Below, in pieces: positions 3,526 to 31,984 of a stretch of 31,984 nt of DNA (its first letter is position 1; every line of letters starts with the position of its first letter). The notes beneath the pieces were generated by a model, which saw only the letters and a program-made list of their open reading frames with translations, made no database searches and was not told the DNA's origin. The DNA comes from a virus. Taxonomy: Duplodnaviria > Heunggongvirae > Uroviricota > Caudoviricetes. Location: the IMG/VR virus record IMGVR_UViG_2534682327_000012; one strand, written 5' to 3'. Made by a program: the position numbers and the translations under genes.

Positions 3526-5800
3526 AGCCTCCGGGCATTTTGTCCCTCCGTCAGCATTTGCTGCAGGCACCGGTAAGGCGTTTACCGGTGCTTATGCATG
3601 GAACGCGCCACGCGAGGCTGTCGGGCGCGAAAGACCCCTTACACGTGACGAGATGCGTCAGGTGCAAGGTGTTTTATCCACGATTAACCGCCTGCCTTAC
3701 TTTTTGCGCTCGCTGTTTACGTCACGCTATGACTACATCCGGCGCAATAAAAGCCCGGTGCACGGGTTTTATTTCCTCACATCCACTTTTCAGCGTCGTT
3801 TATGGCCGCGCATTGAGCGTGTGAATCAGCGCCATGAAATGAACACCGACGCGTCGATGCTGTTTCTGGCTGAGCGTGACCACTATGCGCGCCTGCCGGG
3901 AATGAATGACAAGGAGCTGAAAAAGTTTGCCGCCCGTATCTCATCGCAGCTTTTCATGATGTATGAGGAACTCAGCGATGCCTGGGTGGATGCGCATGGC
4001 GAAAAAGAATCACTGTTTACGGATGAGGCTCAGGCTCACCTGTATGGTCATGTTGCTGGCGCTGCACGAGCTTTCAATATTTCCCCTCTCTACTGGAAAA
4101 AATACCGTAAAGGACAGATGACCACGAGGCAGGCATATTCTGCCATTGCCCGTCTGTTTAACGATGAGTGGTGGACTCATCAGCTTAAAGGCCAGCGTAT
4201 GCGCTGGCATGAAGCGTTACTGATAGCTGTCGGGGAGGTCAATAAAGACCGTTCTCCTTATGCCAGTAAACACGCCATTCGTGATGTGCGTGCGCGCCGC
4301 CAGGCAAATCTGGAATTTCTTAAATCGTGTGATCTCGAAAACAGGGAAACCGGCGAGCGCATCGACCTTATCAGTAAGGTGATGGGCAGTATTTCTAATC
4401 CTGAAATTCGCCGGATGGAGCTGATGAACACCATTGCTGGTATTGAGCGTTACGCCGCAGCAGAGGGTGATGTGGGGATGTTTATCACGCTCACCGCGCC
4501 GTCAAAGTATCACCCGACACGTCAGGTTGGAAAAGGCGAAAGTAAAACCGTCCAGCTAAATCACGGCTGGAACGATGAGGCATTTAATCCAAAGGATGCG
4601 CAGCGTTATCTCTGCCGTATCTGGAGCCTGATGCGCACGGCATTCAAGGATAATGATTTACAGGTCTACGGTTTGCGTGTCGTCGAGCCACACCACGACG
4701 GAACGCCGCACTGGCATATGATGCTTTTTTGTAATCCGCGCCAGCGTAACCAGATTATCGAAATCATGCGTCGCTATGCGCTCAAAGAGGATGGCGACGA
4801 AAGAGGAGCCGCGCGAAACCGTTTTCAGGCGAAACACCTTAATCGGGGCGGTGCTGCGGGGTATATCGCGAAATACATCTCAAAAAACATCGACGGCTAT
4901 GCACTGGATGGTCAGCTCGATAACGATACCGGTAAGCCGCTTAAAGATACTGCCGCGGCTGTTACTGCATGGGCGTCAACGTGGCGCATCCCGCAATTTA
5001 AAACGGTTGGTCTGCCGACAATGGGGGCTTACCGTGAACTACGCAAATTGCCGCGCGGCGTCAGCATTGCTGATGAGTTTGACGAGCGCGTCGAGGCTGC
5101 ACGCGCCGCCGCAGACAGTGGTGATTTTGCGTTGTATATCAGCGCGCAGGGTGGGGCAAATGTCCCGCGCGATTGTCAGACTGTCAGGGTCGCCCGTAGC
5201 CCGTCGGATGACGTTAACGAGTACGAGGAAGAGGTCGAGAGAGTGGTCGGCATTTACGCGCCGCATCTCGGCGCGCGTCATATTCATATCACCAGAACGA
5301 CGGACTGGCGCATTGTGCCGAAAGTTCCGGTCGTTGAGCCTTTGACTTTAAAAAGCGGCATCGCCGCGCCTCGGAGTCCTGTCAATAACTGTGGAAAGCT
5401 CACTGGTGGTGATACTTCGTTACCGGCTCCCACACCTTCTGAACACGCCGCAGCAGTGCTTAATCTGGTTGATGACGGTGTTATCGAATGGAATGACCCG
5501 GAGGTCGTGAGGGGGCTCAGGGGCGCATTAAAACACGGCCTGAGAACACCAAATCGTCAGCAAAGAAACGGAAGCCCGCTAAAACCACATGAAATTGCAC
5601 CATCGGCCAGGCTGACCCGGCCGGAACGATTGCAAATTACCCGTATCCGCGTTGACCTTGCTCAGAACGGTATCAGGCCTCAGCGATGGGAGCTTGAGGC
5701 GCTGGCGCGTGGCGCGACCGTAAATTATGACGGGAAAAAATTCACGTATCCGGTCGCTGATGAGTGGCCGGGATTCTCAACAGTAATGGAGTGGAAATGA
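3515..5800 (+). CDS. A: Replication initiation protein A (rolling-circle HUH endonuclease), 761 aa
   Basis: Translation from MAVKASGHFVPPSAFAAGTGK matches P2 gpA as I recall it; HUH motif TPHWHMMLF and Tyr motif AAGYIAKYISKNIDGY present; the track ORF begins 14 codons upstream at 3473, but the ATG at 3515 gives the P2-like N-terminus. Confidence 0.93.
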   Translation: MAVKASGHFVPPSAFAAGTGKAFTGAYAWNAPREAVGRERPLTRDEMRQVQGVLSTINRLPYFLRSLFTSRYDYIRRNKSPVHGFYFLTSTFQRRLWPRIERVNQRHEMNTDASMLFLAERDHYARLPGMNDKELKKFAARISSQLFMMYEELSDAWVDAHGEKESLFTDEAQAHLYGHVAGAARAFNISPLYWKKYRKGQMTTRQAYSAIARLFNDEWWTHQLKGQRMRWHEALLIAVGEVNKDRSPYASKHAIRDVRARRQANLEFLKSCDLENRETGERIDLISKVMGSISNPEIRRMELMNTIAGIERYAAAEGDVGMFITLTAPSKYHPTRQVGKGESKTVQLNHGWNDEAFNPKDAQRYLCRIWSLMRTAFKDNDLQVYGLRVVEPHHDGTPHWHMMLFCNPRQRNQIIEIMRRYALKEDGDERGAARNRFQAKHLNRGGAAGYIAKYISKNIDGYALDGQLDNDTGKPLKDTAAAVTAWASTWRIPQFKTVGLPTMGAYRELRKLPRGVSIADEFDERVEAARAAADSGDFALYISAQGGANVPRDCQTVRVARSPSDDVNEYEEEVERVVGIYAPHLGARHIHITRTTDWRIVPKVPVVEPLTLKSGIAAPRSPVNNCGKLTGGDTSLPAPTPSEHAAAVLNLVDDGVIEWNDPEVVRGLRGALKHGLRTPNRQQRNGSPLKPHEIAPSARLTRPERLQITRIRVDLAQNGIRPQRWELEALARGATVNYDGKKFTYPVADEWPGFSTVMEWK

Positions 5801-6252
5801 TGGCAAAAATTCACGAGGTAAAGCTGCACGCAAAATATTTTGACCTTGTGCTGGAAGGAAAGAAACGCGCAGAGTTTCGGAAAAATGACCGTAATTATGA
5901 GCGCGGGGACACGTTGATTTTGCATGAATGGGTGCAGGGTGTGTTTACGGGGCGAAAGGTTGAAGCCCGGATAACAGATGTTACTGACCTGTCAGACTGG
6001 CTGGAAGACTATGTCTTGCTAAGTATTGAGCTGCTTAATACAGGCGCATATGAGATTGTGAACTGGAAAGAACTTAGTGAGCGTGGCCTGGTATTCAGAA
6101 TTAATCATGAAATTATGCATCAGCTCGGCCTTGCTGTTATGTATGAACCAGAGACGGGGATGTCTGGCGGGGCAATGGTCGCCACGGATGGAGCATGGAA
6201 CTATTCAGATGAACAGATGGAGCGTGCACAGCAAAACGGGTGGCTTGGATAA
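5797..6252 (+). CDS. ASCH/PUA-like small protein (DUF3850-like), ~151 aa
   Basis: ATG overlaps the A stop; N-terminus KIHEVKLHAKYFDLVLEGKKRAEFRKNDRNYERGDTLILHEW resembles the DUF3850/ASCH family as I remember it (domain call moderate). Confidence 0.7.
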   Translation: MMAKIHEVKLHAKYFDLVLEGKKRAEFRKNDRNYERGDTLILHEWVQGVFTGRKVEARITDVTDLSDWLEDYVLLSIELLNTGAYEIVNWKELSERGLVFRINHEIMHQLGLAVMYEPETGMSGGAMVATDGAWNYSDEQMERAQQNGWLG

Positions 6253-6530: not shown

Positions 6531-7265
6531 CTATTTATTAAAAAATTCTAGAAGTGTAATTCCATTGGCTCCAAGGCTTACAAAGCCTTCAATACTATTA
6601 ATTGATGTGATTGTCTTTTTCAGAATGTTCTTTAGCTTTGAGCCTTCTTCGGTCGTAGTTATTACTTCGTTAAATTGCTCAGACATACAAGCATGCCCCA
6701 TTGTGGCTTCTGTTGCTGAAATTATTGGCTCAATACCAGTTATTTCATAGTCGTCAAAAGCTCTAATCATGTTGTCAATGTAATATAATATTTCTTTTTT
6801 TAGGTTAATTGGGAAGTCAGAATTAATTATGGATTCCTTCAGTTCTAATAATTGCCCCTTTATTTCAATTAACTGTTCATCTTTAAGTTTTCCAATCTGA
6901 CCTTTGGTCTTGAATAGGACTGATATCATCCCTAATTCATTTATGGCATTATCAGAGATTCTTTGGAGGGAATGGGACAGAGATTCTCCCAGATTTAAGT
7001 TTTCGAAAAAATCATTAACACTGGGCCTCCAGTGTGGTGCTGTGATTTCATCTTCTGGAAAGTAGTCTTTTAATGTGTTATCTATTTTTTTAGGCAAGCT
7101 CATGATTTTGGAAATCTTATCCCATAAGATGGTTTTATTATCTTCAGAACCCTCTAATTCAAACATTTGTAATAAAGCACGCTTTACCGTAATGTTATAT
7201 GGTTGTTGTGCTTTTAGCTTGGTGAAAAACTCTCGTAAGGTCAGTGCTGAATTGTCGATGTACAT
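6531..7265 (-). CDS. Low-GC cargo protein of unknown function in the tin/old slot, 244 aa
   Basis: Long uninterrupted ORF on the strand opposite the early operon, visibly AT-rich compared with flanking phage core; sits between gene A and cos where P2 carries tin/old; no motif I can recognise. Confidence 0.75.
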   Translation of the reverse strand: MYIDNSALTLREFFTKLKAQQPYNITVKRALLQMFELEGSEDNKTILWDKISKIMSLPKKIDNTLKDYFPEDEITAPHWRPSVNDFFENLNLGESLSHSLQRISDNAINELGMISVLFKTKGQIGKLKDEQLIEIKGQLLELKESIINSDFPINLKKEILYYIDNMIRAFDDYEITGIEPIISATEATMGHACMSEQFNEVITTTEEGSKLKNILKKTITSINSIEGFVSLGANGITLLEFFNK

Positions 7266-16907: not shown

Positions 16908-17693
16908 TTATGAGTGATTTTTATTTGATGCTTTGTATTCTACAACCTTCTTATTGGCGTAAAGGAATTTTGTATATGACAGGAATATAACCAGACCTGA
17001 AATGAAATAGATGAGGGATATTATTAATAATGCTTTTTTTTGGCTGTTATTATCTTTAATCTCCTGACTTAACCATTCCGAGTCCTCCTCGTTTAGCTGT
17101 AAGAGCTTATTGCAGGCGATCTCAGGAAGTGTGTCTTTTATAAATACGTTTCGTAGCCTCTTGCAATCGGCAAGGCTATAAGTTTTATTGAATTCAACTG
17201 CTTTATTCTTGAAGGATAAGAGAACTTTGTCACTATAAACATAGTACATCATGTTTTTATATGGTATGCCTATGGCATCCCTTACTATAACGGATTGTTC
17301 GTTGTGTATGTAACATGCGAGGAGAATGCAAAAAATACTGGACAGAATTACAATTATTGTTTTAATTATGTGTGGTGTTTTTGTTATGTCACCCCAGATG
17401 CGAGTAAGGAAAAAACACGATGTTTTTAGTTTTCCATCAATCAGTCCCTGCTGTATCATTCTCACATTTTCAATGCCTGATACATTGATTCCGTTAATTA
17501 TTTTAAATAGTTGAATGTCGCGCCACTCGCGGTCAAGTCTTTTTAATTTTTTGTCTGAATACCCAAAATTGAAATAATGTGCAATAAGCCTCATAAGGTT
17601 ACTTTTACCAAAGCTAAAAAATGCTAATACTGCAAAGCTACAAAGGAAAAAAACGATTAGCCCCCACACATTAGTCACATTATAGCTGACCAT
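16908..17693 (-). CDS. Low-GC cargo membrane protein of unknown function in the orf30 slot, 261 aa
   Basis: Strong RBS AAGGAG 6 nt upstream of the ATG (minus strand); three hydrophobic segments (N-terminal, central, C-terminal); AT-rich; on the strand opposite the late tail operon. Confidence 0.8.
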   Translation of the reverse strand: MVSYNVTNVWGLIVFFLCSFAVLAFFSFGKSNLMRLIAHYFNFGYSDKKLKRLDREWRDIQLFKIINGINVSGIENVRMIQQGLIDGKLKTSCFFLTRIWGDITKTPHIIKTIIVILSSIFCILLACYIHNEQSVIVRDAIGIPYKNMMYYVYSDKVLLSFKNKAVEFNKTYSLADCKRLRNVFIKDTLPEIACNKLLQLNEEDSEWLSQEIKDNNSQKKALLIISLIYFISGLVIFLSYTKFLYANKKVVEYKASNKNHS

Positions 17694-17776
17694 TACGCTC
17701 TCCTTGAATGTTGTCTGGTAGTTCTACAAATGAATCCAGATAGCATAACTTTTATATATTGTGCAATCTCACATGC

Positions 17777-18412
17777 ATGAACACTCTCGCAAATATTCAG
17801 GAACTCGCGCGCGCACTGCGCAACATGATTCGCACCGGCATTATCGTCGAAACCGACCTTAACGCCGGTCGCTGCCGTGTGCAGACCGGCGGCATGTGCA
17901 CCGACTGGCTTCAGTGGCTGACCCATCGCGCCGGACGTTCGCGCACATGGGGGGCACCTTCCGTAGGGGAACAGGTGCTGATTCTGGCCGTGGGCGGTGA
18001 ACTCGACACGGCGTTCGTTCTGCCGGGGATTTATTCCGGCGATAACCCCGCGCCGTCTGCGTCGGCGGATGCCCTGCATATCCGTTTCCCTGACGGGGCG
18101 GTGATTGAGTATGAACCTGAAACCAGTGCGCTCACGGTAAGCGGAGTTAAAACGGCCAGCGTGATGGCTTCTGATTCTGTTACTGCCACGGTGCCGGTGG
18201 TTATGGTGAAAGCATCAACCCGCATCACCCTGGACACACCGGAAGTGGTCTGCACCAACAAACTGACTACCGGCACGCTGGAAGTGCAGAAGGGCGGGAC
18301 GATGCGCGGCAACATTGAACACACCGGCGGTGAACTCTCATCAAACGGTAAGGTACTGCATACCCATAAACACCCCGGCGACAGCGGCGGCACAACCGGG
18401 AGTCCTTTATGA
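17777..18412 (+). CDS. V: Baseplate spike/assembly protein V, 211 aa
   Basis: Translation from MNTLANIQELARALRNMIRTGIIVETDLNAGRCRVQTGGM matches P2 gpV as I recall it; the track ORF starts with a TTG at 17759. Confidence 0.9.
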   Translation: MNTLANIQELARALRNMIRTGIIVETDLNAGRCRVQTGGMCTDWLQWLTHRAGRSRTWGAPSVGEQVLILAVGGELDTAFVLPGIYSGDNPAPSASADALHIRFPDGAVIEYEPETSALTVSGVKTASVMASDSVTATVPVVMVKASTRITLDTPEVVCTNKLTTGTLEVQKGGTMRGNIEHTGGELSSNGKVLHTHKHPGDSGGTTGSPL

Positions 18413-18756
18413 CAGCGCGTTATCTCGGAATGAATCGCAGTGATGGCCTGACTGTCACTGACCTTGAGCATATCAGCCAGAGTATCGGCGATATCCTGCG
18501 CACACCGGTCGGCTCACGGGTGATGCGTCGTGATTACGGCTCGTTGCTGGCATCAATGATTGACCAGCCGCAGACCCCGGCGCTTGAGTTGCAGATTAAG
18601 GTCGCCTGTTACATGGCGGTGCTGAAATGGGAACCCCGCGTCACCCTGTCATCCGTCACCACTGAGCGCAGTTTTGACGGGCGAATGACGGTCACGTTAA
18701 CCGGCCAGCACAACGACACCGGCCAGCCACTTTCATTAACCATCCCTGTGAGTTGA
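18409..18756 (+). CDS. W: Baseplate protein W, 115 aa
   Basis: ATGA overlap with V; size and order. Confidence 0.88.
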   Translation: MTARYLGMNRSDGLTVTDLEHISQSIGDILRTPVGSRVMRRDYGSLLASMIDQPQTPALELQIKVACYMAVLKWEPRVTLSSVTTERSFDGRMTVTLTGQHNDTGQPLSLTIPVS

Positions 18757-18760
18757 AACC

Positions 18761-19669
18761 ATGCCGATTATCGACCTGAACCAGCTACCCGCACCGGATG
18801 TGGTCGAGGAGCTGGACTTTGAAACCATTCTTGCCGAACGCAAGGCGACACTGATTTCCCTTTACCCGGAAGACCAGCAGGAGGCGGTCGCCCGTACCCT
18901 GACGCTGGAATCCGAGCCTCTCGTCAAACTGCTGGAGGAAAATGCTTATCGTGAGCTTATCTGGCGTCAGCGTGTGAATGAGGCCGCACGGGCGGTAATG
19001 CTGGCCTGTGCCGCCGGTAATGACCTTGATGTGATTGGTGCCAATTACAACACCACGCGCCTGATTATCACCCCGGCAGATGATTCGACCCTCCCGCCGA
19101 CACCGGCAGTGATGGAATCTGACACGGATTATCGTCTGCGTATTCAGCAGGCGTTTGAAGGTTTAAGCGTCGCCGGGTCGGTGGGGGCCTATCAGTATCA
19201 TGGTCGCAGTGCCGACGGGCGTGTCGCGGATATTTCTGTAACCAGTCCGTCTCCGGCCTGCGTCACCATCTCTGTGCTGTCACGTGAAAATAACGGTGTC
19301 GCATCCGAAGACCTACTGGCGGTGGTGCGTAACGCCCTTAATGGTGAGGACGTCAGGCCGGTGGCCGACCGCGTGACCGTGCAGTCTGCCGCCATCGTTG
19401 AATACCAGATAAACGCCACGCTTTACCTTTACCCTGGTCCCGAAAGCGAACCCATACGCGCTGCTGCCGTGAAAAAACTGGAAGCGTACATCACGGCACA
19501 GCACCGGCTGGGGCGCGACATCCGTCTGTCTGCCATTTATGCCGCTTTGCATGTGGAAGGCGTGCAGCGTGTCGAACTGACTGCACCGCTGGCCGACATC
19601 GTGCTCAACAGTACGCAGGCGTCTTTCTGTACCGAATACCGCGTCGTGACCGGAGGCTCGGATGAGTGA
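18761..19669 (+). CDS. J: Baseplate protein J, 302 aa
   Basis: Size and order. Confidence 0.88.
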   Translation: MPIIDLNQLPAPDVVEELDFETILAERKATLISLYPEDQQEAVARTLTLESEPLVKLLEENAYRELIWRQRVNEAARAVMLACAAGNDLDVIGANYNTTRLIITPADDSTLPPTPAVMESDTDYRLRIQQAFEGLSVAGSVGAYQYHGRSADGRVADISVTSPSPACVTISVLSRENNGVASEDLLAVVRNALNGEDVRPVADRVTVQSAAIVEYQINATLYLYPGPESEPIRAAAVKKLEAYITAQHRLGRDIRLSAIYAALHVEGVQRVELTAPLADIVLNSTQASFCTEYRVVTGGSDE

Positions 19670-20192
19670 TTCGCGACTGCTGCCGACCGGCTCATCACCG
19701 CTTGAAGTTGCCGCCGCACAAGCCTGTGCGGAAATTGAAAAAACGCCGGTCAGGATTCGTGAACTGTGGAACCCGGATACCTGTCCGGCAAATCTGCTGC
19801 CGTGGCTGGCGTGGGCGTTTTCGGTCGACAGGTGGGATGAAAAGTGGCCGGAAGCGACAAAACGCGCCGTTATCCGCGATGCCTATTTCATCCACTGTCA
19901 TAAAGGCACTATCGGCGCAATCCGGCGTGTGGTGGAGCCGCTCGGCTATCTCATCAACGTGACGGAGTGGTGGGAAAACAGTGACCCGCCCGGCACCTTC
20001 CGGCTTGATATTGGTGTACTGGAAAGCGGCATCACAGAGGCAATGTATCAGGAAATGGAACGGCTTATTGCTGATGCCAAACCTGCAAGCCGTCATCTTA
20101 TTGGCCTGAACATTACCCGGGACATTCCCGGCTACCTGTTCGCCGGTGGTGTGGCTTACGACGGCGATGTAATTACGGTTTACCCCGGATAA
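19662..20192 (+). CDS. I: Baseplate/tail protein I, 176 aa
   Basis: Overlaps the J stop; size and order. Confidence 0.88.
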   Translation: MSDSRLLPTGSSPLEVAAAQACAEIEKTPVRIRELWNPDTCPANLLPWLAWAFSVDRWDEKWPEATKRAVIRDAYFIHCHKGTIGAIRRVVEPLGYLINVTEWWENSDPPGTFRLDIGVLESGITEAMYQEMERLIADAKPASRHLIGLNITRDIPGYLFAGGVAYDGDVITVYPG

Positions 20193-20202
20193 GTGAGGAA
20201 TA

Positions 20203-22497
20203 ATGAGCACAAAATTCAGAACCGTTATCACCACTGCCGGTGCAGCAAAGCTGGCAGCGGCAACCGCACCGGGAGGGCGGAAGGTCAACATTACCACGAT
20301 GGCCGTCGGGGATGGCGGTGGTAAATTGCCTGTCCCGGATGCCGGACAGACCGGGCTTATCCACGAAGTCTGGCGACATACGCTGAACAAAATCAGCCAG
20401 GACAAACGAAACAGTAATTATATTATCGCAGAGCTGGTTATTCCGCCGGAGGTGGGCGGTTTCTGGATGCGTGAGCTTGGCCTGTACGATGATGCGGGAA
20501 CGTTAATTGCCGTGGCGAACATGGCCGAAAGTTATAAGCCAGCTCTTGCCGAAGGCTCAGGGCGTTCGCAGACCTGTCGCATGGTCATCATCGTCAGCAG
20601 TGTGGCCTCGGTGGAGCTGACCATTGACACCACAACGGTGATGGCGACACAGGATTACGTTGATGACAAAATTGCAGAGCACGAACAGTCACGACGTCAC
20701 CCGGACGCCTCGCTGACCGCAAAAGGTTTTACTCAGTTAAGCAGTGCGACCAACAGCACGTCTGAAACACTGGCCGCAACGCCGAAAGCGGTAAAGGCCG
20801 CCTATGACCTTGCTAACGGGAAATATACCGCACAGGACGCTACCACTGCGCGAAAAGGTCTTGTCCAGCTCAGTAGTGCCACCAACAGCACGTCTGAAAC
20901 GCTTGCGGCAACGCCAAAGGCGGTTAAGACAGCGTATGACCTTGCTAACGGGAAATACACTGCACAGGACGCCACTACAGCGCGAAAAGGTCTTGTCCAG
21001 CTCAGTAGCGCCACCAACAGCGATTCTGAAACGCTTGCGGCAACACCAAAGGCGGTTAAGACAGCGTATGACCTTGCTAACGGGAAATACACTGCACAGG
21101 ATGCCACCACAGCGCGAAAAGGTCTTGTCCAGCTAAGTAGTGCCATCAACAGCGATTCTGAAACGCTGGCCGCAACGCCAAAAGCAGTGAAGTCTGCCTA
21201 TGACAATGCTGAAAAACGTCTTCAGAAAGATCAGAACGGTGCGGATATTCCGGGAAAGGATACCTTCACGAAAAATATCGGTGCCTGTCGTGCTTATAGC
21301 GGCGCTTTGAGCACTGAAGCCGGAAACTGGACAACCGCTCAGTTTATTGAATGGCTGGATTCCCGTGGTGCATTTAATCATCCGTACTGGATGTGCAAAG
21401 GCTCCTGGTCATATGCAAATAACAAAATCATTACGGATACCGGATGTGGTGATATCCACCTGGCTGGTTGTGTCGTCGAGGTCATGGGAACTAAATCTGC
21501 AATCACTATCCGAGTGACCACGCCAACAACATCAAGCGGTGGCGGTACAACCAGCGCGCAATTCACTTACATAAATCATGGGGACGGCTACTCCCCCGGC
21601 TGGCGTCGTGACTGGAATCGTCAGGGCGACTCAATGACCGGAACGATTAATCAGGATGGCGGAAGCCAGAATGCCTATATGTCTACGGCCTTATGTTCAG
21701 GCACCAGAGGCGGCAAAAAATATCTCAGAAAGTTTCGTGGTGGAGAAGGAGATACTATCTGGCATGAAACAGTTCAGGGCGGGGTAATTCGCTGGGCGAC
21801 AGGAAACAATGACGCTCAGGAAGAATTATCACTCAGCTCCGCTTATGGTCTCCGTTCAAGAGGTGAAATTACATCACTCAGTGCTAATGGTCTGCGCATT
21901 GCTTATGGCAATTATGGATTCTTTATCAGGAATGATGGCGGCAGCACATATTTAATGCTGACGGCCTCTGGCGATAAATTTGGGACATGGAACGGCTTAA
22001 GACCGCTGACTATCAATAACGCCAATGGCGGAGTGTCAATGGGGCATGGCCTGAGTGTTACAGGTGATATTGTCTCAAGTACCAAAGTACGTGCCGGTAG
22101 CGGGAAAAAGTTCACGGTCAGCAGCAGCAATACATCCACGAAGGAAGCCGCATTCAATTTGTGGGGAAACTCAAGTCGTCCTGTGGTGGCTGAATTAGGT
22201 GATGATGCAGGCTGGCATTTTTACAGTCAGAGAAATACAGATAACAGCATCACTTTTGCTGTTAACGGGCAGGTATCACCATCTAACTATAGTAATTTTG
22301 ATTCCCGTTATGTACGCGATATCCGGCTTGGGACTCGAGTTGTCCAGACCATGAAGAAAGGGGGGATGTATGAGAAAGCAGGGCACGTAATTACCGGGCT
22401 TGGTATTATCGGTGAAGTCGATGGTGATGACCCCGCAGTATTCAGACCAATACAAAAATACATCAATGGCACATGGTATAACGTCGCACAGGTGTAA
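20203..22497 (+). CDS. H: Tail fibre protein H, 764 aa, with an internal tandem repeat array
   Basis: Conserved N-terminal part MSTKFRTVITTAGAAKLAAATAPGG; Ser/Thr/Gly-rich C-terminal receptor-binding part; followed by tail fibre assembly gene G. Confidence 0.9.
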   Translation: MSTKFRTVITTAGAAKLAAATAPGGRKVNITTMAVGDGGGKLPVPDAGQTGLIHEVWRHTLNKISQDKRNSNYIIAELVIPPEVGGFWMRELGLYDDAGTLIAVANMAESYKPALAEGSGRSQTCRMVIIVSSVASVELTIDTTTVMATQDYVDDKIAEHEQSRRHPDASLTAKGFTQLSSATNSTSETLAATPKAVKAAYDLANGKYTAQDATTARKGLVQLSSATNSTSETLAATPKAVKTAYDLANGKYTAQDATTARKGLVQLSSATNSDSETLAATPKAVKTAYDLANGKYTAQDATTARKGLVQLSSAINSDSETLAATPKAVKSAYDNAEKRLQKDQNGADIPGKDTFTKNIGACRAYSGALSTEAGNWTTAQFIEWLDSRGAFNHPYWMCKGSWSYANNKIITDTGCGDIHLAGCVVEVMGTKSAITIRVTTPTTSSGGGTTSAQFTYINHGDGYSPGWRRDWNRQGDSMTGTINQDGGSQNAYMSTALCSGTRGGKKYLRKFRGGEGDTIWHETVQGGVIRWATGNNDAQEELSLSSAYGLRSRGEITSLSANGLRIAYGNYGFFIRNDGGSTYLMLTASGDKFGTWNGLRPLTINNANGGVSMGHGLSVTGDIVSSTKVRAGSGKKFTVSSSNTSTKEAAFNLWGNSSRPVVAELGDDAGWHFYSQRNTDNSITFAVNGQVSPSNYSNFDSRYVRDIRLGTRVVQTMKKGGMYEKAGHVITGLGIIGEVDGDDPAVFRPIQKYINGTWYNVAQV
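20722..21204 (+). repeat. In-frame 132-bp (44-aa) tandem repeat, about 3.7 copies, within H (unit KGLVQLSSATNSTSETLAATPKAVKTAYDLANGKYTAQDATTAR)
   Basis: Copies begin at 20722, 20854, 20986 and 21118; copies 2 and 3 are nearly identical at the DNA level. Confidence 0.9.
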
Positions 22498-22500
22498 TTT

Positions 22501-23028
22501 ATGCAGCATTTAAAAAATATTACTGCGGGTAATCCAAAAACTGTTGCCCAATATCAACTGACAAAAAATTTTGATGTTATCTGGTTATGGTCCGAAGAGG
22601 GAAAAAACTGGTATGAGGAAGTAAGTAATTTTCAGGCAGACACGATAAAGATTGTTTACGACGAGAATAATATAATTGTCGGCATCACCAGAGATGCTTC
22701 AACGCTTAACCCTGAAGGTTTTAGCGTTGTCGAGGTTCCTGATATTACCGCCAACCGACGTGCTGATGACTCAGGGAAATGGATGTTTAAGGATGGTGCC
22801 GTGATTAAGCGGATTTATACGGCAGACGAACAGCAACAACAGGCAGAATCACAAAAGGCCGCGTTACTTTCCGAAGCGGAAAGCGTTATTCAGCCACTGG
22901 AGCGCGCTGTCAGGCTGAACATGGCAACAGATGAGGAGCGTAGCCGACTGGAAGCATGGGAACGCTACAGTGTTCTGGTCAGCCGTGTGGATCCTGCAAA
23001 TCCTGAATGGCCGGAAATGCCGCAATAA
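22501..23028 (+). CDS. G: Tail fibre assembly protein G, 175 aa
   Basis: Immediately downstream of H; size and order. Confidence 0.85.
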
Positions 23029-23416: not shown

Positions 23417-23944
23417 ATGGACTGGAAAGATCTTGCATCAACCGCTGTGTATACAGGTATGACTGATGAAAATGAAAGCATATGGGAACGTGTTGATGGG
23501 GTTGACGTTGCCTTCATAGGTGCCTTTCTTACTGCGCACTTGAGCCTTGAAAAGTATATTACTGATTATCTTGGATTAAGATATCCTTCGTTAGCTTGGG
23601 GTGATGCAAAACTCACATTTTCACAAAAAATAGCTTTAATACAACATGAGCCTGCAAAACCCCCTTATGATGAAATATATTTAAGAATAAAAGACTTTAA
23701 CAGCATAAGAAATAAAATCAGTCATCAATTGAATTATCAGATTACGGATAAAGAAAAAAGTAAGTTTGTGGACTTCTATATGAAGATTACTAAAGCCAGT
23801 AAAACTAAACCAAATATTGATATTGATAACATGGCAGATTTGTTGGGTTTTTTCGTATCGATGACAAAATCCTATTTTGCTAGTGCTATTTCTTATTATC
23901 ATTATAATAAAAAGGTTGCAGGTAAAAGTAATAAAATTGATTAA
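23417..23944 (+). CDS. Low-GC cargo protein in the Z/fun slot, 175 aa; candidate HEPN-like RNase (motif R98-N-K-I-S-H103)
   Basis: RBS AAGGA ~7 nt upstream of the ATG; AT-rich; RNKISH encoded at 23708..23725 fits the HEPN Rx4-6H motif with the usual Asn after Arg; a terminator follows downstream. Confidence 0.75.
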   Translation: MDWKDLASTAVYTGMTDENESIWERVDGVDVAFIGAFLTAHLSLEKYITDYLGLRYPSLAWGDAKLTFSQKIALIQHEPAKPPYDEIYLRIKDFNSIRNKISHQLNYQITDKEKSKFVDFYMKITKASKTKPNIDIDNMADLLGFFVSMTKSYFASAISYYHYNKKVAGKSNKID

Positions 23945-31000: not shown

Positions 31001-31081
31001 ATCCTCAATTTGCCTGCTGCTTAATGCATTGCAGATGATTTGCTTCCGTTATACTAGCGTCAGTTGATAGCGGGAGTATTT

Positions 31082-31984
31082 ATGAATCAATCTTATGGAC
31101 GGCTGGTCAGTCGGGCGGCGATTGCTGCGACGGCGATGGCTTCGTTGCTATTGCTGATTAAAATTTTTGCATGGTGGTATACCGGGTCGGTGAGTATTCT
31201 CGCCGCGCTGGTGGATTCGCTGGTGGATATCGGCGCGTCGTTGACGAATTTACTGGTGGTGCGATATTCCCTGCAACCTGCCGACGATAATCACTCGTTT
31301 GGTCACGGTAAAGCAGAGTCCCTCGCGGCGCTGGCGCAAAGTATGTTTATCTCCGGTTCGGCACTATTCCTGTTTTTGACGGGTATTCAACATCTGATAT
31401 CTCCAACACCGATGACAGATCCAGGCGTCGGGGTTATCGTGACAATTGTGGCGCTAATTTGTACGATTATCCTTGTCTCGTTTCAGCGTTGGGTGGTGCG
31501 CCGGACGCAAAGCCAGGCGGTGCGGGCTGATATGCTACATTACCAGTCTGATGTTATGATGAACGGCGCAATTCTGCTGGCGCTGGGGTTGTCCTGGTAC
31601 GGCTGGCATCGCGCCGATGCTCTGTTTGCATTGGGAATCGGCATCTATATTTTATATAGCGCGTTACGCATGGGATATGAGGCGGTACAGTCATTACTGG
31701 ATCGCGCATTGCCTGATGAGGAACGGCAAGAAATTATTGATATCGTGACTTCCTGGCCGGGTGTTAGCGGCGCTCACGATCTTCGCACGCGGCAGTCAGG
31801 GCCGACCCGCTTTATTCAGATTCATTTGGAAATGGAAGACTCTCTGCCTTTGGTTCAGGCACATATGGTGGCGGATCAGGTAGAGCAGGCTATTTTACGG
31901 CGTTTTCCGGGATCGGATGTAATTATCCATCAGGACCCCTGTTCCGTCGTACCCAGGGAGGGTAAACGGTCTATGCTTTCATAA
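31082..31984 (+). CDS. fieF: Host cation-diffusion-facilitator Fe/Zn efflux transporter FieF (YiiP), 300 aa
   Basis: Translation [54 protein letters not shown]... recognised as enterobacterial FieF; the track ORF starts at an upstream TTG, the ATG at 31082 gives the known N-terminus; stop at the window end. Confidence 0.93.

Follow-up and report, generated by a model that had tools for sequence, protein, structure and literature searches.

In adenovirus fibres the shaft is made of repeats, and its length differs by whole units between related viruses. Among tailed phages, the P2 fibre is ~54 nm long, has 'two repeat domains (RBPseg-D19)' after the adaptor and contacts the sheath through its anchor domains (P2 cryo-EM preprint, bioRxiv 10.64898/2026.09.14.750843). 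Prophage fibres of EHEC contain collagen and heptad tracts of variable length, and a single Pf2 unit is flanked by the collagen domains (PMC3368898). The tail-fibre repeat of ~40 residues is catalogued in Pfam as PF03406 (Phage_fiber_2). A pseudotyping paper did not employ the repeat as a fusion point (PMC9594776), and our literature search found nothing specific on copy-number variation of the PF03406 unit in P2-like phages.

We analyzed a 31,984-nucleotide stretch of viral DNA (IMG/VR record IMGVR_UViG_2534682327_000012; the window), which carries a P2-like prophage with the following tail-fibre features:

20203..22497, + strand: tail-fibre gene H of the P2-like prophage, 764 aa (Pfam PF12571, PF03406 four times and PF21446; gene order)
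20203..20721, + strand: N-terminal adaptor/tail-collar domain, aa 1-173, the fibre-to-baseplate joint (PF12571)
21202..21663, + strand: Mu S'-like middle domain, aa 334-487 (PDB 8ju3; best stretch 238.7 bits, i-Evalue 1.4e-69)
21205..21252, + strand: conserved junction NAEKRLQKDQNGADIP, aa 335-350, after which alternative distal modules diverge
21820..22014, + strand: gp34-type trimerisation/beta-helical knob domain, aa 540-604 (PF21446, E 4.1e-24)
22501..23028, + strand: tail-fibre assembly chaperone G (PF02413 Caudo_TAP, E 1.6e-36)

The operon ORFs (18409-18756, 18761-19669 and 19662-20192, then H, then 22501-23028) place H in a V-W-J-I-H-G baseplate/fibre operon, with W-J-I-H-G in the order found in annotated P2 and in E. 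coli BS15R-A, and the Pfam labels in locus L188 agree with the same gene order. At the DNA level H is 99.5% identical to a RefSeq gene annotated 'tail fiber protein'; NCBIfam contains no model matching it. The PF12571 match covers residues 1-151 (E 3.7e-58), and the N-terminal domain protein is 98-100% identical among 80 IMG/VR loci, while the knob domain is matched by the T4 gp34 structures 4uxe and 5nxf. Downstream of H we found only G and a 175-aa ORF without assigned function, and a search there with the Pfam library, reverse transcriptases and invertases included, revealed no family that would indicate a DGR or a Mu Gin/P1 Cin-type system.

A sequence-only reading of the window had proposed that the shaft region of H contains a 132-bp in-frame tandem array with a partial last copy. 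The array was recovered by TRF as a single indel-free array spanning 20743-21204, with 3.5 copies of a 132-nt period and 89% matches (score 686), by a repeat search, which returned three in-register 226-nt copies spaced 132 and 132 nt apart with the first at 20721, and by self-comparison at an offset of 132, where the identity across 20722-21204 was 0.883 vs 0.259 ± 0.023 in 1000 shuffles (maximum 0.348). In the frame of H, the units start at 20722, 20854, 20986 and 21118, corresponding to residues 174, 218, 262 and 306 of the 764-aa ORF 20203-22497:

20722..20853, + strand: repeat unit 1, KGFTQLSS... type, aa 174-217 (TRF, repeat search, unit alignment)
20854..20985, + strand: repeat unit 2, aa 218-261 (unit alignment)
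20986..21117, + strand: repeat unit 3, aa 262-305, the type amplified in 5- and 6-copy relatives (unit alignment)
21118..21204, + strand: repeat unit 4, partial, 29-residue core only, aa 306-334 (TRF array end; fourth PF03406 stretch)

Unit 4 has only its first 29 residues in common with the others and ends at 21204, so that the description of the last copy as partial was right. Over the full 132 nt, neighbouring units are 83.3%, 94.7% and 65.2% identical, with in-register exact runs of 23, 56 and 21 bp. Units 1 and 2 share 41 of 44 residues. Copies 2 and 3 had been called almost identical; the wording was mildly overstated, since 7 of 132 nucleotides differ (with one amino-acid change). Every pair of units has at least 7 differing sites, and the longest exact repeat within the array is present in two copies:

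20914..20969, + strand: 56-bp exact block, copy one
21046..21101, + strand: 56-bp exact block, copy two, an exact repeat of 20914-20969

This block would be the best substrate in the array for unequal exchange.

Four stretches of H matched PF03406 with 257.3 bits against a gathering cut-off of 22 (E 3.6e-78), the best of them spanning profile positions 1-41 of 42. The exact 44-aa period, the PF12571 N-terminus and the Caudo_TAP neighbour agree with the definition of this family. The array is the catalogued 'phage tail fibre repeat', already known and an ordinary finding. The earlier reading of the window had not identified the unit as PF03406.

We consider it very probable that the array consists of four PF03406 units, three full and one truncated, which form the proximal shaft of trimeric gpH and turn over by whole units. 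The units lie between the N-terminal domain, which binds the baseplate, and the receptor-binding distal part, which is Mu S/S'-like. From the P2 preprint and the homology to P2 H, they are predicted to adopt the RBPseg-D19 trimeric shaft fold; an AF2 single-chain model of residues 156-366 (pLDDT 41, pTM 0.23) was too poor for fold comparison. Each unit may add a fixed increment to fibre length, the units acting purely as spacers. Between lineages, unit number changes in whole 132-bp steps; gains and losses could result from unequal exchange between units or from slippage between them during replication, and sequence may be exchanged among units by gene conversion.

Comparison with related prophages and phages confirmed that copy number varies in exact 44-aa steps. 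A strict 44-aa period starting from residue 173/174 was present in 102/102 scored homologues, and the 98 complete ones contain one (n = 7), two (22), three (10), four (48) or five (11) units, with up to six found in the protein database. Within the distal class of H itself, 2, 3, 4, 5 and 6 units occur in 1, 4, 26, 1 and 1 of the 33 genes, and the corresponding protein lengths are 676, 728, 764/772, 816 and 860 aa. Four is the commonest number among the relatives and the one that P2-like prophages of E. coli usually have, with two-unit P2 at the short end. The sequence-only reading had described H as longer than its P2 counterpart, and it is (764 vs 669 aa); two added 44-aa units make up 88 of the 95 residues by which it exceeds P2 H. 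The Yersinia phages P37 (3 units) and vB_YpM_46 (4 units) have the same distal part, and the host in both records is Y. pestis EV76; therefore, both fibre lengths function. We also considered whether repeat number is offset by the rest of the protein, and rejected this, as the non-repeat part ranges from 466 to 596 aa with no consistent inverse relation.

Copy number follows the distal class: P2-type genes always have two units, the 709-aa class mostly five, and several classes always four. This pattern is accounted for equally well by linkage as by tuning of fibre length. It appears unlikely to us that selection uses unit number as a quantised tuner and that fibre length does not simply drift neutrally. 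If it did, the number could be adapted to how deep the surface polysaccharide of the host is or to the sheath-docking register of the folded-back fibre, and the unusually high synonymous divergence between units might persist as protection against recombinational loss.

The copy number could be wrong, if short-read assembly had collapsed or inflated the near-identical repeats. The exactly identical H protein was found only in a multi-contig WGS assembly (GCA_000356985.2, contig APYB01000068.1), which is the source assembly and hence no independent confirmation, and the array contains the ends of some IMG/VR contigs, at H nt 822 in L063, ~667 in L134 and ~574 in L138. However, no exact repeat is longer than 56 bp and each pair of units has at least 7 differences, so that reads or k-mers longer than 56 nt resolve the array. 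Confirmation came from the complete genome of E. coli BS15R-A, which has the same four units and differs at 1 nucleotide of the array and at 11 of 2295 nt, and arrays from two other IMG genomes (L003 and L004) are 99.6% identical. Among complete genomes of E. coli listed for this type of allele, the 2295-bp form (n = 33) and the 2163-bp form (n = 5) occur in proportions that agree with those in draft contigs. Contig ends within H fall in the array in 4 of 14 cases, and the array makes up ~24% of the gene, so there is no enrichment. An assembly artefact is thus extremely unlikely, and the warning that the array is a likely assembly collapse point did not hold up against the 56-bp limit and the same four-unit array of BS15R-A.

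The array was also inspected for signs of selection and turnover. Codon differences between units 1 and 2 comprise 15 synonymous and 3 nonsynonymous changes, and 119 of 158 allelic variants in the array are synonymous; at the protein level, each unit is under strong purifying selection. Two observations speak for exchange among units. Nucleotide diversity is 0.061 in the array vs 0.019 in the N-terminal domain. Of the synonymous variants, 61/119 are present at the same offset in another unit, vs 41 expected (p ~1e-4), an enrichment that is only 1.5-fold and to which shared codon preference could contribute. Of the six copies at locus L147, three are of the unit-3 type, and adjacent ones among these are 98.9-100% identical over their 87-nt cores; in locus L022 units 2 and 3 are identical. 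Some 3-copy alleles retain unit type 2 and others type 3; therefore, these losses were independent. The positional identity of units is mostly kept among alleles that differ by ~6% over the array, and this, together with the four-copy mode, indicates that the array is older than the alleles and not fast-cycling. Expansion and contraction thus appear, from these comparisons, to be real but infrequent.

The array had previously been described as a hot spot for RecA-dependent expansion and contraction. In its strongest form, this would make it a contingency locus, a hypermutable RecA-driven switch that frequently alters fibre length within a lineage. The minimum for RecA-mediated exchange is ~25 bp, which the 56-bp exact block of units 2 and 3 exceeds. 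The occurrence of 2 to 6 copies with one and the same distal module and the very recent duplications in L147 and L022 also speak for such a switch. Against it, four copies are modal and fairly stable (48/98 overall, and 26/33 in the same distal class), and units mostly hold their position among alleles ~6% apart. Repeats of classical contingency loci are essentially identical, whereas the neighbouring units here, at 83%, 95% and 65% identity, do not show the near-identical unit DNA of a contingency or VNTR locus. In addition, the prophage has no Chi site; the two that were found (31207 and 31219) are in the host flank. Short tandem repeats also rearrange through RecA-independent slippage. We therefore regard a contingency locus as very unlikely, and the term hot spot as too strong.

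Two repetitive ORFs overlap the array:

20802..21149, - strand: spurious antisense repetitive ORF, 115 aa, open in 16/48 other four-copy alleles, with 4 stop variants
20804..21136, + strand: spurious out-of-frame repetitive ORF, 110 aa, open in 7/48 other four-copy alleles

Variants in the second of these comprise 96 nonsynonymous and 8 stop changes vs 11 synonymous ones. We rejected both ORFs as real genes because of the natural stop variants (4 and 8) and because they are closed in most alleles; stops in other four-copy alleles agree with the earlier suggestion that these repetitive ORFs, one on each strand, do not represent genes but are spurious.

The evidence from the distal modules bears on a further explanation, in which the repeat is mainly a patch of DNA homology to unrelated phages (lambda Stf and Mu S among others) for swapping distal receptor-binding modules, and additional copies arise as by-products of the exchange. 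Over nucleotides 10-75, the unit matches lambda stf (orf-401) with 93.9% identity, and similar units are also present in further phages outside the P2-like group, among them Xuanwuvirus and lambdoid phages that have side tail fibres. Fibre S of Mu has one homologous unit followed by a homologue of the junction, DNANARLAKDRNGADIP. Among the E. coli IMG/VR loci, the post-array junction is common to all non-P2-type distal classes (one 3-copy outlier excepted), which share ...AVKSAYDNAEKRLQKDQNGADIP and diverge directly after GADIP; in the P2 type, the distal part is joined within the last unit, following AVK. Matches occur in half of complete E. coli genomes, at a median of 2 places and a maximum of 15 per genome. 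However, one unit would suffice for such a role, which leaves three full units unexplained, and the strong amino-acid conservation together with synonymous divergence between units indicates selection on protein rather than on DNA identity. As the main function of the repeat, a recombination adaptor is possible but rather doubtful; it is compatible with the explanation of the array as a shaft repeat.

The importance of the array is low in itself, the same allele being already annotated 'tail fiber protein' in RefSeq genomes and isolated phages. Natural fibres with 2-6 units on one receptor-binding module indicate that the segment tolerates length change, and this tolerance, together with GADIP as a natural point of module divergence, is useful for the design of chimeric P2 or tailocin fibres. 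For annotators, the overlapping repetitive ORFs can be ignored, and there is no need to suspect the array as an assembly error.

Compared with known systems, H is most readily set beside P2 gpH (669 aa; NC_001895 12734-14743). The two are alike in gene position (W-J-I-H-G) and N-terminal domain, the 44-aa unit starts from residue 174 in both, unit 1 of P2 H is 97.0% identical in DNA to unit 1 here, and the distal tips are related; megablast gave 88% identity over the proximal half of the genes. They differ in unit number, P2 H having two units (one full and one truncated) against four here, and in the distal join, which in P2 lies inside the last unit after AVK, whereas here a Mu S/S'-like part follows the GADIP junction. 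The same H allele type is found in the E. coli BS15R-A prophage (99.5% nucleotide identity; four-unit array with one nucleotide different), in Yersinia phage vB_YpM_46 (97.0% over the whole gene; 4 units) and in Yersinia phage P37 (91.7%), which has one internal unit fewer (3 units, 720 aa). Phage Mu S/S' (PDB 5yvq and 8ju3) has the homologous unit, the junction motif, the S'-like middle domain and the tip in common with H, and the lambda side tail fibre Stf shares the homologous repeat unit, but in each of them the match found covers a single unit, and the N-terminal attachment domains differ from that of H. The fibres of EHEC prophages and adenovirus resemble H in varying in length by whole units, but differ in unit length and fold. 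The unit is the same in kind as that of Pfam PF03406, whose entry is without the copy-number spectrum that P2-like phages display.

TRF returned one strong tandem array in the window, at 20743-21204 (period 132, 3.5 copies, 89% matches, 0 indels, score 686), the remaining rows scoring 46 or less, and a repeat search found three in-register 226-nt copies from 20721 at 132-nt spacing. At an offset of 132 the self-identity of 20722-21204 was 0.883, compared with 0.259 +/- 0.023 in shuffled sequences (n=1000, maximum 0.348). The array is in frame with the open reading frame of the tail-fibre gene H (20203-22497, 764 aa), with units placed as follows:

20722 (start), + strand: repeat unit 1, H residue 174
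20854 (start), + strand: repeat unit 2, H residue 218
20986 (start), + strand: repeat unit 3, H residue 262
21118-21204, + strand: partial repeat unit 4, H residue 306, sharing only its first 29 residues with the others

The coordinates and description given in the sequence-only reading are thus correct. Its wording that units 2 and 3 are almost identical was slightly generous, as they differ at 7 of 132 nucleotides (94.7% identity) and in a single residue. Between units 1 and 2, DNA identity is 83.3% and 41 of 44 residues match, the codon differences being 15 synonymous and 3 nonsynonymous. In Pfam, the units correspond to four PF03406 Phage_fiber_2 ('phage tail fibre repeat') matches (257 bits, cut-off 22, E 3.6e-78). 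The array thus exists where it was placed and is genuine biology, but it belongs to a catalogued repeat family, sits in a gene that is already annotated and has the commonest configuration.

Pfam searches placed a tail-collar fibre domain (PF12571) at the N-terminus of H (residues 1-151) and a gp34 trimerisation domain (PF21446) at residues 540-604; the following gene (22501-23028) encodes a Caudo_TAP fibre-assembly chaperone. Residues 334-487 (21202-21663) closely match the phage Mu S' fibre in the G(-) orientation (PDB 8ju3, 238.7 bits), and in the search of solved structures the C-terminal third matched Mu S (5yvq). Since its middle is close to Mu S' and its tip is similar to those of Mu S and P2 H, the protein is a P2/Mu S'/Mu S mosaic, a make-up that may bear on host range. 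The window, which is IMG/VR contig IMGVR_UViG_2531839485_000011, carries an almost complete P2-like prophage whose genes run W-J-I-H-G, the order seen in P2 and in the Escherichia coli BS15R-A prophage. In RefSeq, BS15R-A has a 'tail fiber protein' gene 99.5% identical to the window H, and H of Yersinia phage vB_YpM_46 is 97% identical. The P2 gpH fibre is described as ~54 nm long with eight domains, 'two repeat domains (RBPseg-D19)' following the adaptor (2026 P2 virion preprint, bioRxiv 10.64898/2026.09.14.750843).

The comparison drew H from 80 IMG/VR contigs and from 22 genomes of other species, 102 related loci in all, and counted units by means of an HMM built on 31 residues of the unit (the 29-residue core plus two residues). 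In every locus scored (n=102), the array started at residue 173 or 174 and kept a strict 44-aa period. Among 98 complete genes, 7 had one unit, 22 had two, 10 had three, 48 had four and 11 had five, and a six-unit protein is present in the protein database, so that copy number varies from 1 to 6 units. P2 H has 669 aa and two units (one full, one truncated); the window H is longer, as the sequence-only reading suggested, and its two extra units make up 88 of the 95 additional residues. Four units are thus the commonest number among relatives; P2 is the short variant and the window H is no unusual expansion. A second scan, with the distal half of the window H as the query, yielded 33 complete genes that belong to its distal class.

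Unit number and H length in the window's distal class
2 units: 676 aa, 1 gene
3 units: 728 aa, 4 genes
4 units: 764 or 772 aa, 26 genes
5 units: 816 aa, 1 gene
6 units: 860 aa, 1 gene

Lengths differ by exact multiples of 44 within 728/772/816/860 and within 676/764. Among the complete E. coli genomes listed with the allele type of the window H, the gene measures 2295 bp in 33 and 2163 bp, 132 bp less, in 5. The distal part is also that of phage P37, whose 720-aa H has 3 units, and of vB_YpM_46, which has 4; as the records of both name Y. pestis EV76 as host, 3- and 4-unit fibre lengths both work.

Two IMG/VR relatives (L029 and L050) have a shortened H of 322 and 265 aa that stops within the array or shortly beyond it, which could reflect a frameshift, sequencing error or a decaying prophage. 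Contigs labelled Vagococcus sp. WN89Y (a Firmicute) and Chryseobacterium sp. 18061 (Bacteroidota) carry P2-like H genes whose N-terminal domain is 74-79% identical to the enterobacterial one, likely through contamination or mislabelling of the assemblies.

Unit type mostly follows position in the array: units that come first, second, third or last in other alleles match window units 1, 2, 3 and 4 best, with exceptions in 8 of 49 second units, which are of type 3 or type 1. Recent events do occur: a six-unit relative (L147) has three type-3 units with 87-nt cores 98.9-100% identical between neighbours, and units 2 and 3 are 100% identical in one locus (L022) and 99.2% identical in another (L001). 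Some three-unit alleles have kept type 2 and others type 3, so units were lost independently. Across 49 four-unit alleles, nucleotide diversity reached 0.061 in the array, against 0.019 for the N-terminal domain; among same-length alleles the array is 93-95.5% identical and the segment just after it 98-99%. Of 158 distinct array variants, 119 were synonymous, and 61 of these match the base at the same offset in another window unit, versus ~41 expected from a random draw of synonymous alternatives (p about 1e-4). Our reading is that units exchange sequence with one another while the protein is under strong purifying selection; the excess is a modest one, to which shared codon preference may contribute. 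Window units 2 and 3 are closer to each other than in most alleles (typically 85-90%) and share a 56-bp exact block (20914-20969 and 21046-21101), consistent with a past conversion tract.

The interpretation in the sequence-only reading held in part: the added length relative to P2, the variation in copy number and the spurious reading frames stand, a hot spot and assembly collapse are not supported, and any RecA dependence is conjectural. Unit number does change on evolutionary time scales; the array is not obviously a hot spot, since one number is common to most alleles of a class and its organisation predates allele divergence. Adjacent units share exact in-register stretches of 23, 56 and 21 bp. 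A window scan found no Chi site in the prophage; the only two (31207 and 31219) lie 12 bp apart, within a 12-bp direct repeat in the host flank. Divergence of 5-20% strongly depresses RecA-mediated exchange, and tandem repeats of such size in E. coli also change via RecA-independent slippage.

Assembly collapse, also suggested for this region, was not supported. The longest exact repeat in the array is 56 bp, so longer reads or k-mers resolve it. The four-unit array recurs in the complete-level genome of BS15R-A with a one-nucleotide difference, and the arrays of two further loci (L003 and L004) are 99.6% identical to that of the window. Contig ends inside H (nt 219, 441, 574, 667, 822, 1110, 1393, 1495, 1508, 1555, 1647, 2088, 2223 and 2226) are not enriched in the array, which holds 4 of 14 within it or at its edge and occupies ~24% of the gene. 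The exact window H protein was found in only one assembly, the multi-contig WGS GCA_000356985.2. Two repetitive open reading frames overlap the array:

20804-21136, + strand: open in 7 of 48 other alleles
20802-21149, - strand: antisense, open in 16 of 48 other alleles, with 4 stop variants

Variants in the first comprise 96 nonsynonymous, 8 stop and 11 synonymous changes. Both frames are broken in most other alleles, and their earlier description as spurious is correct.

Other loci of the window were also noted:

5764-6252, + strand: 162-aa ORF after the replication gene, with DUF3850/ASCH and DUF7415 domains
6531-7265, - strand: 244-aa ORF adjoining the Q gene, at the P2 old/tin-type cargo position
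16908-17693, - strand: 261-aa ORF between S and V
17693-18079, - strand: 128-aa ORF adjoining the former with a 1-nt overlap
23417-23944, + strand: 175-aa ORF between the fibre chaperone G and the tail sheath FI
31064-31984, + strand: cation-efflux (FieF/YiiP-like) gene, PF01545 and PF16916, host DNA at the right end

The last marks the prophage-host junction. The 244-aa, 261-aa, 128-aa and 175-aa ORFs had no Pfam, PADLOC or NCBIfam matches. Among PHROGs of unknown function, the 244-aa ORF matched 15904 over its full length, the 261-aa ORF 2407 and the 175-aa ORF 5483 only; the 128-aa ORF had no match. In the otherwise near-identical BS15R-A prophage, V follows S directly, and the pair inserted at 16908-18079 may form a moron or defence cassette of two genes. 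The 175-aa ORF, annotated 'hypothetical protein' in BS15R-A, occupies the P2 fun(Z) position, reportedly a hot spot for anti-phage cargo in the work of Rousset and colleagues from 2022.

The array end is also the place at which distal modules change. Among E. coli IMG/VR loci, with one 3-copy outlier set aside, ...AVKSAYDNAEKRLQKDQNGADIP is common to all non-P2-type distal classes and divergence follows directly, while the P2-type distal part is joined inside the last unit, after AVK. H matches occur in half of complete E. coli genomes, at a median of two places and a maximum of 15. What is mildly new is descriptive only: unit numbers that range from 1 to 6 and peak at four, an excess of synonymous diversity that bears a signature of exchange between units, and module junctions that cluster at the last unit. 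Residues 99-173 of Mu S are homologous to the last unit and the junction motif ...DNAEKRLQKDQNGADIP, lambda stf is 93.9% identical to nucleotides 10-75 of the unit, and further phages that are not P2-like, among them Xuanwuvirus and lambdoid phages that bear side tail fibres, have units resembling it. The junction pattern fits the long-standing view, said to originate with Haggard-Ljungquist and colleagues in 1992 and Sandmeier in 1994, that unrelated phages swap receptor-binding modules at conserved fibre motifs, a role that accounts for one conserved unit better than for three.
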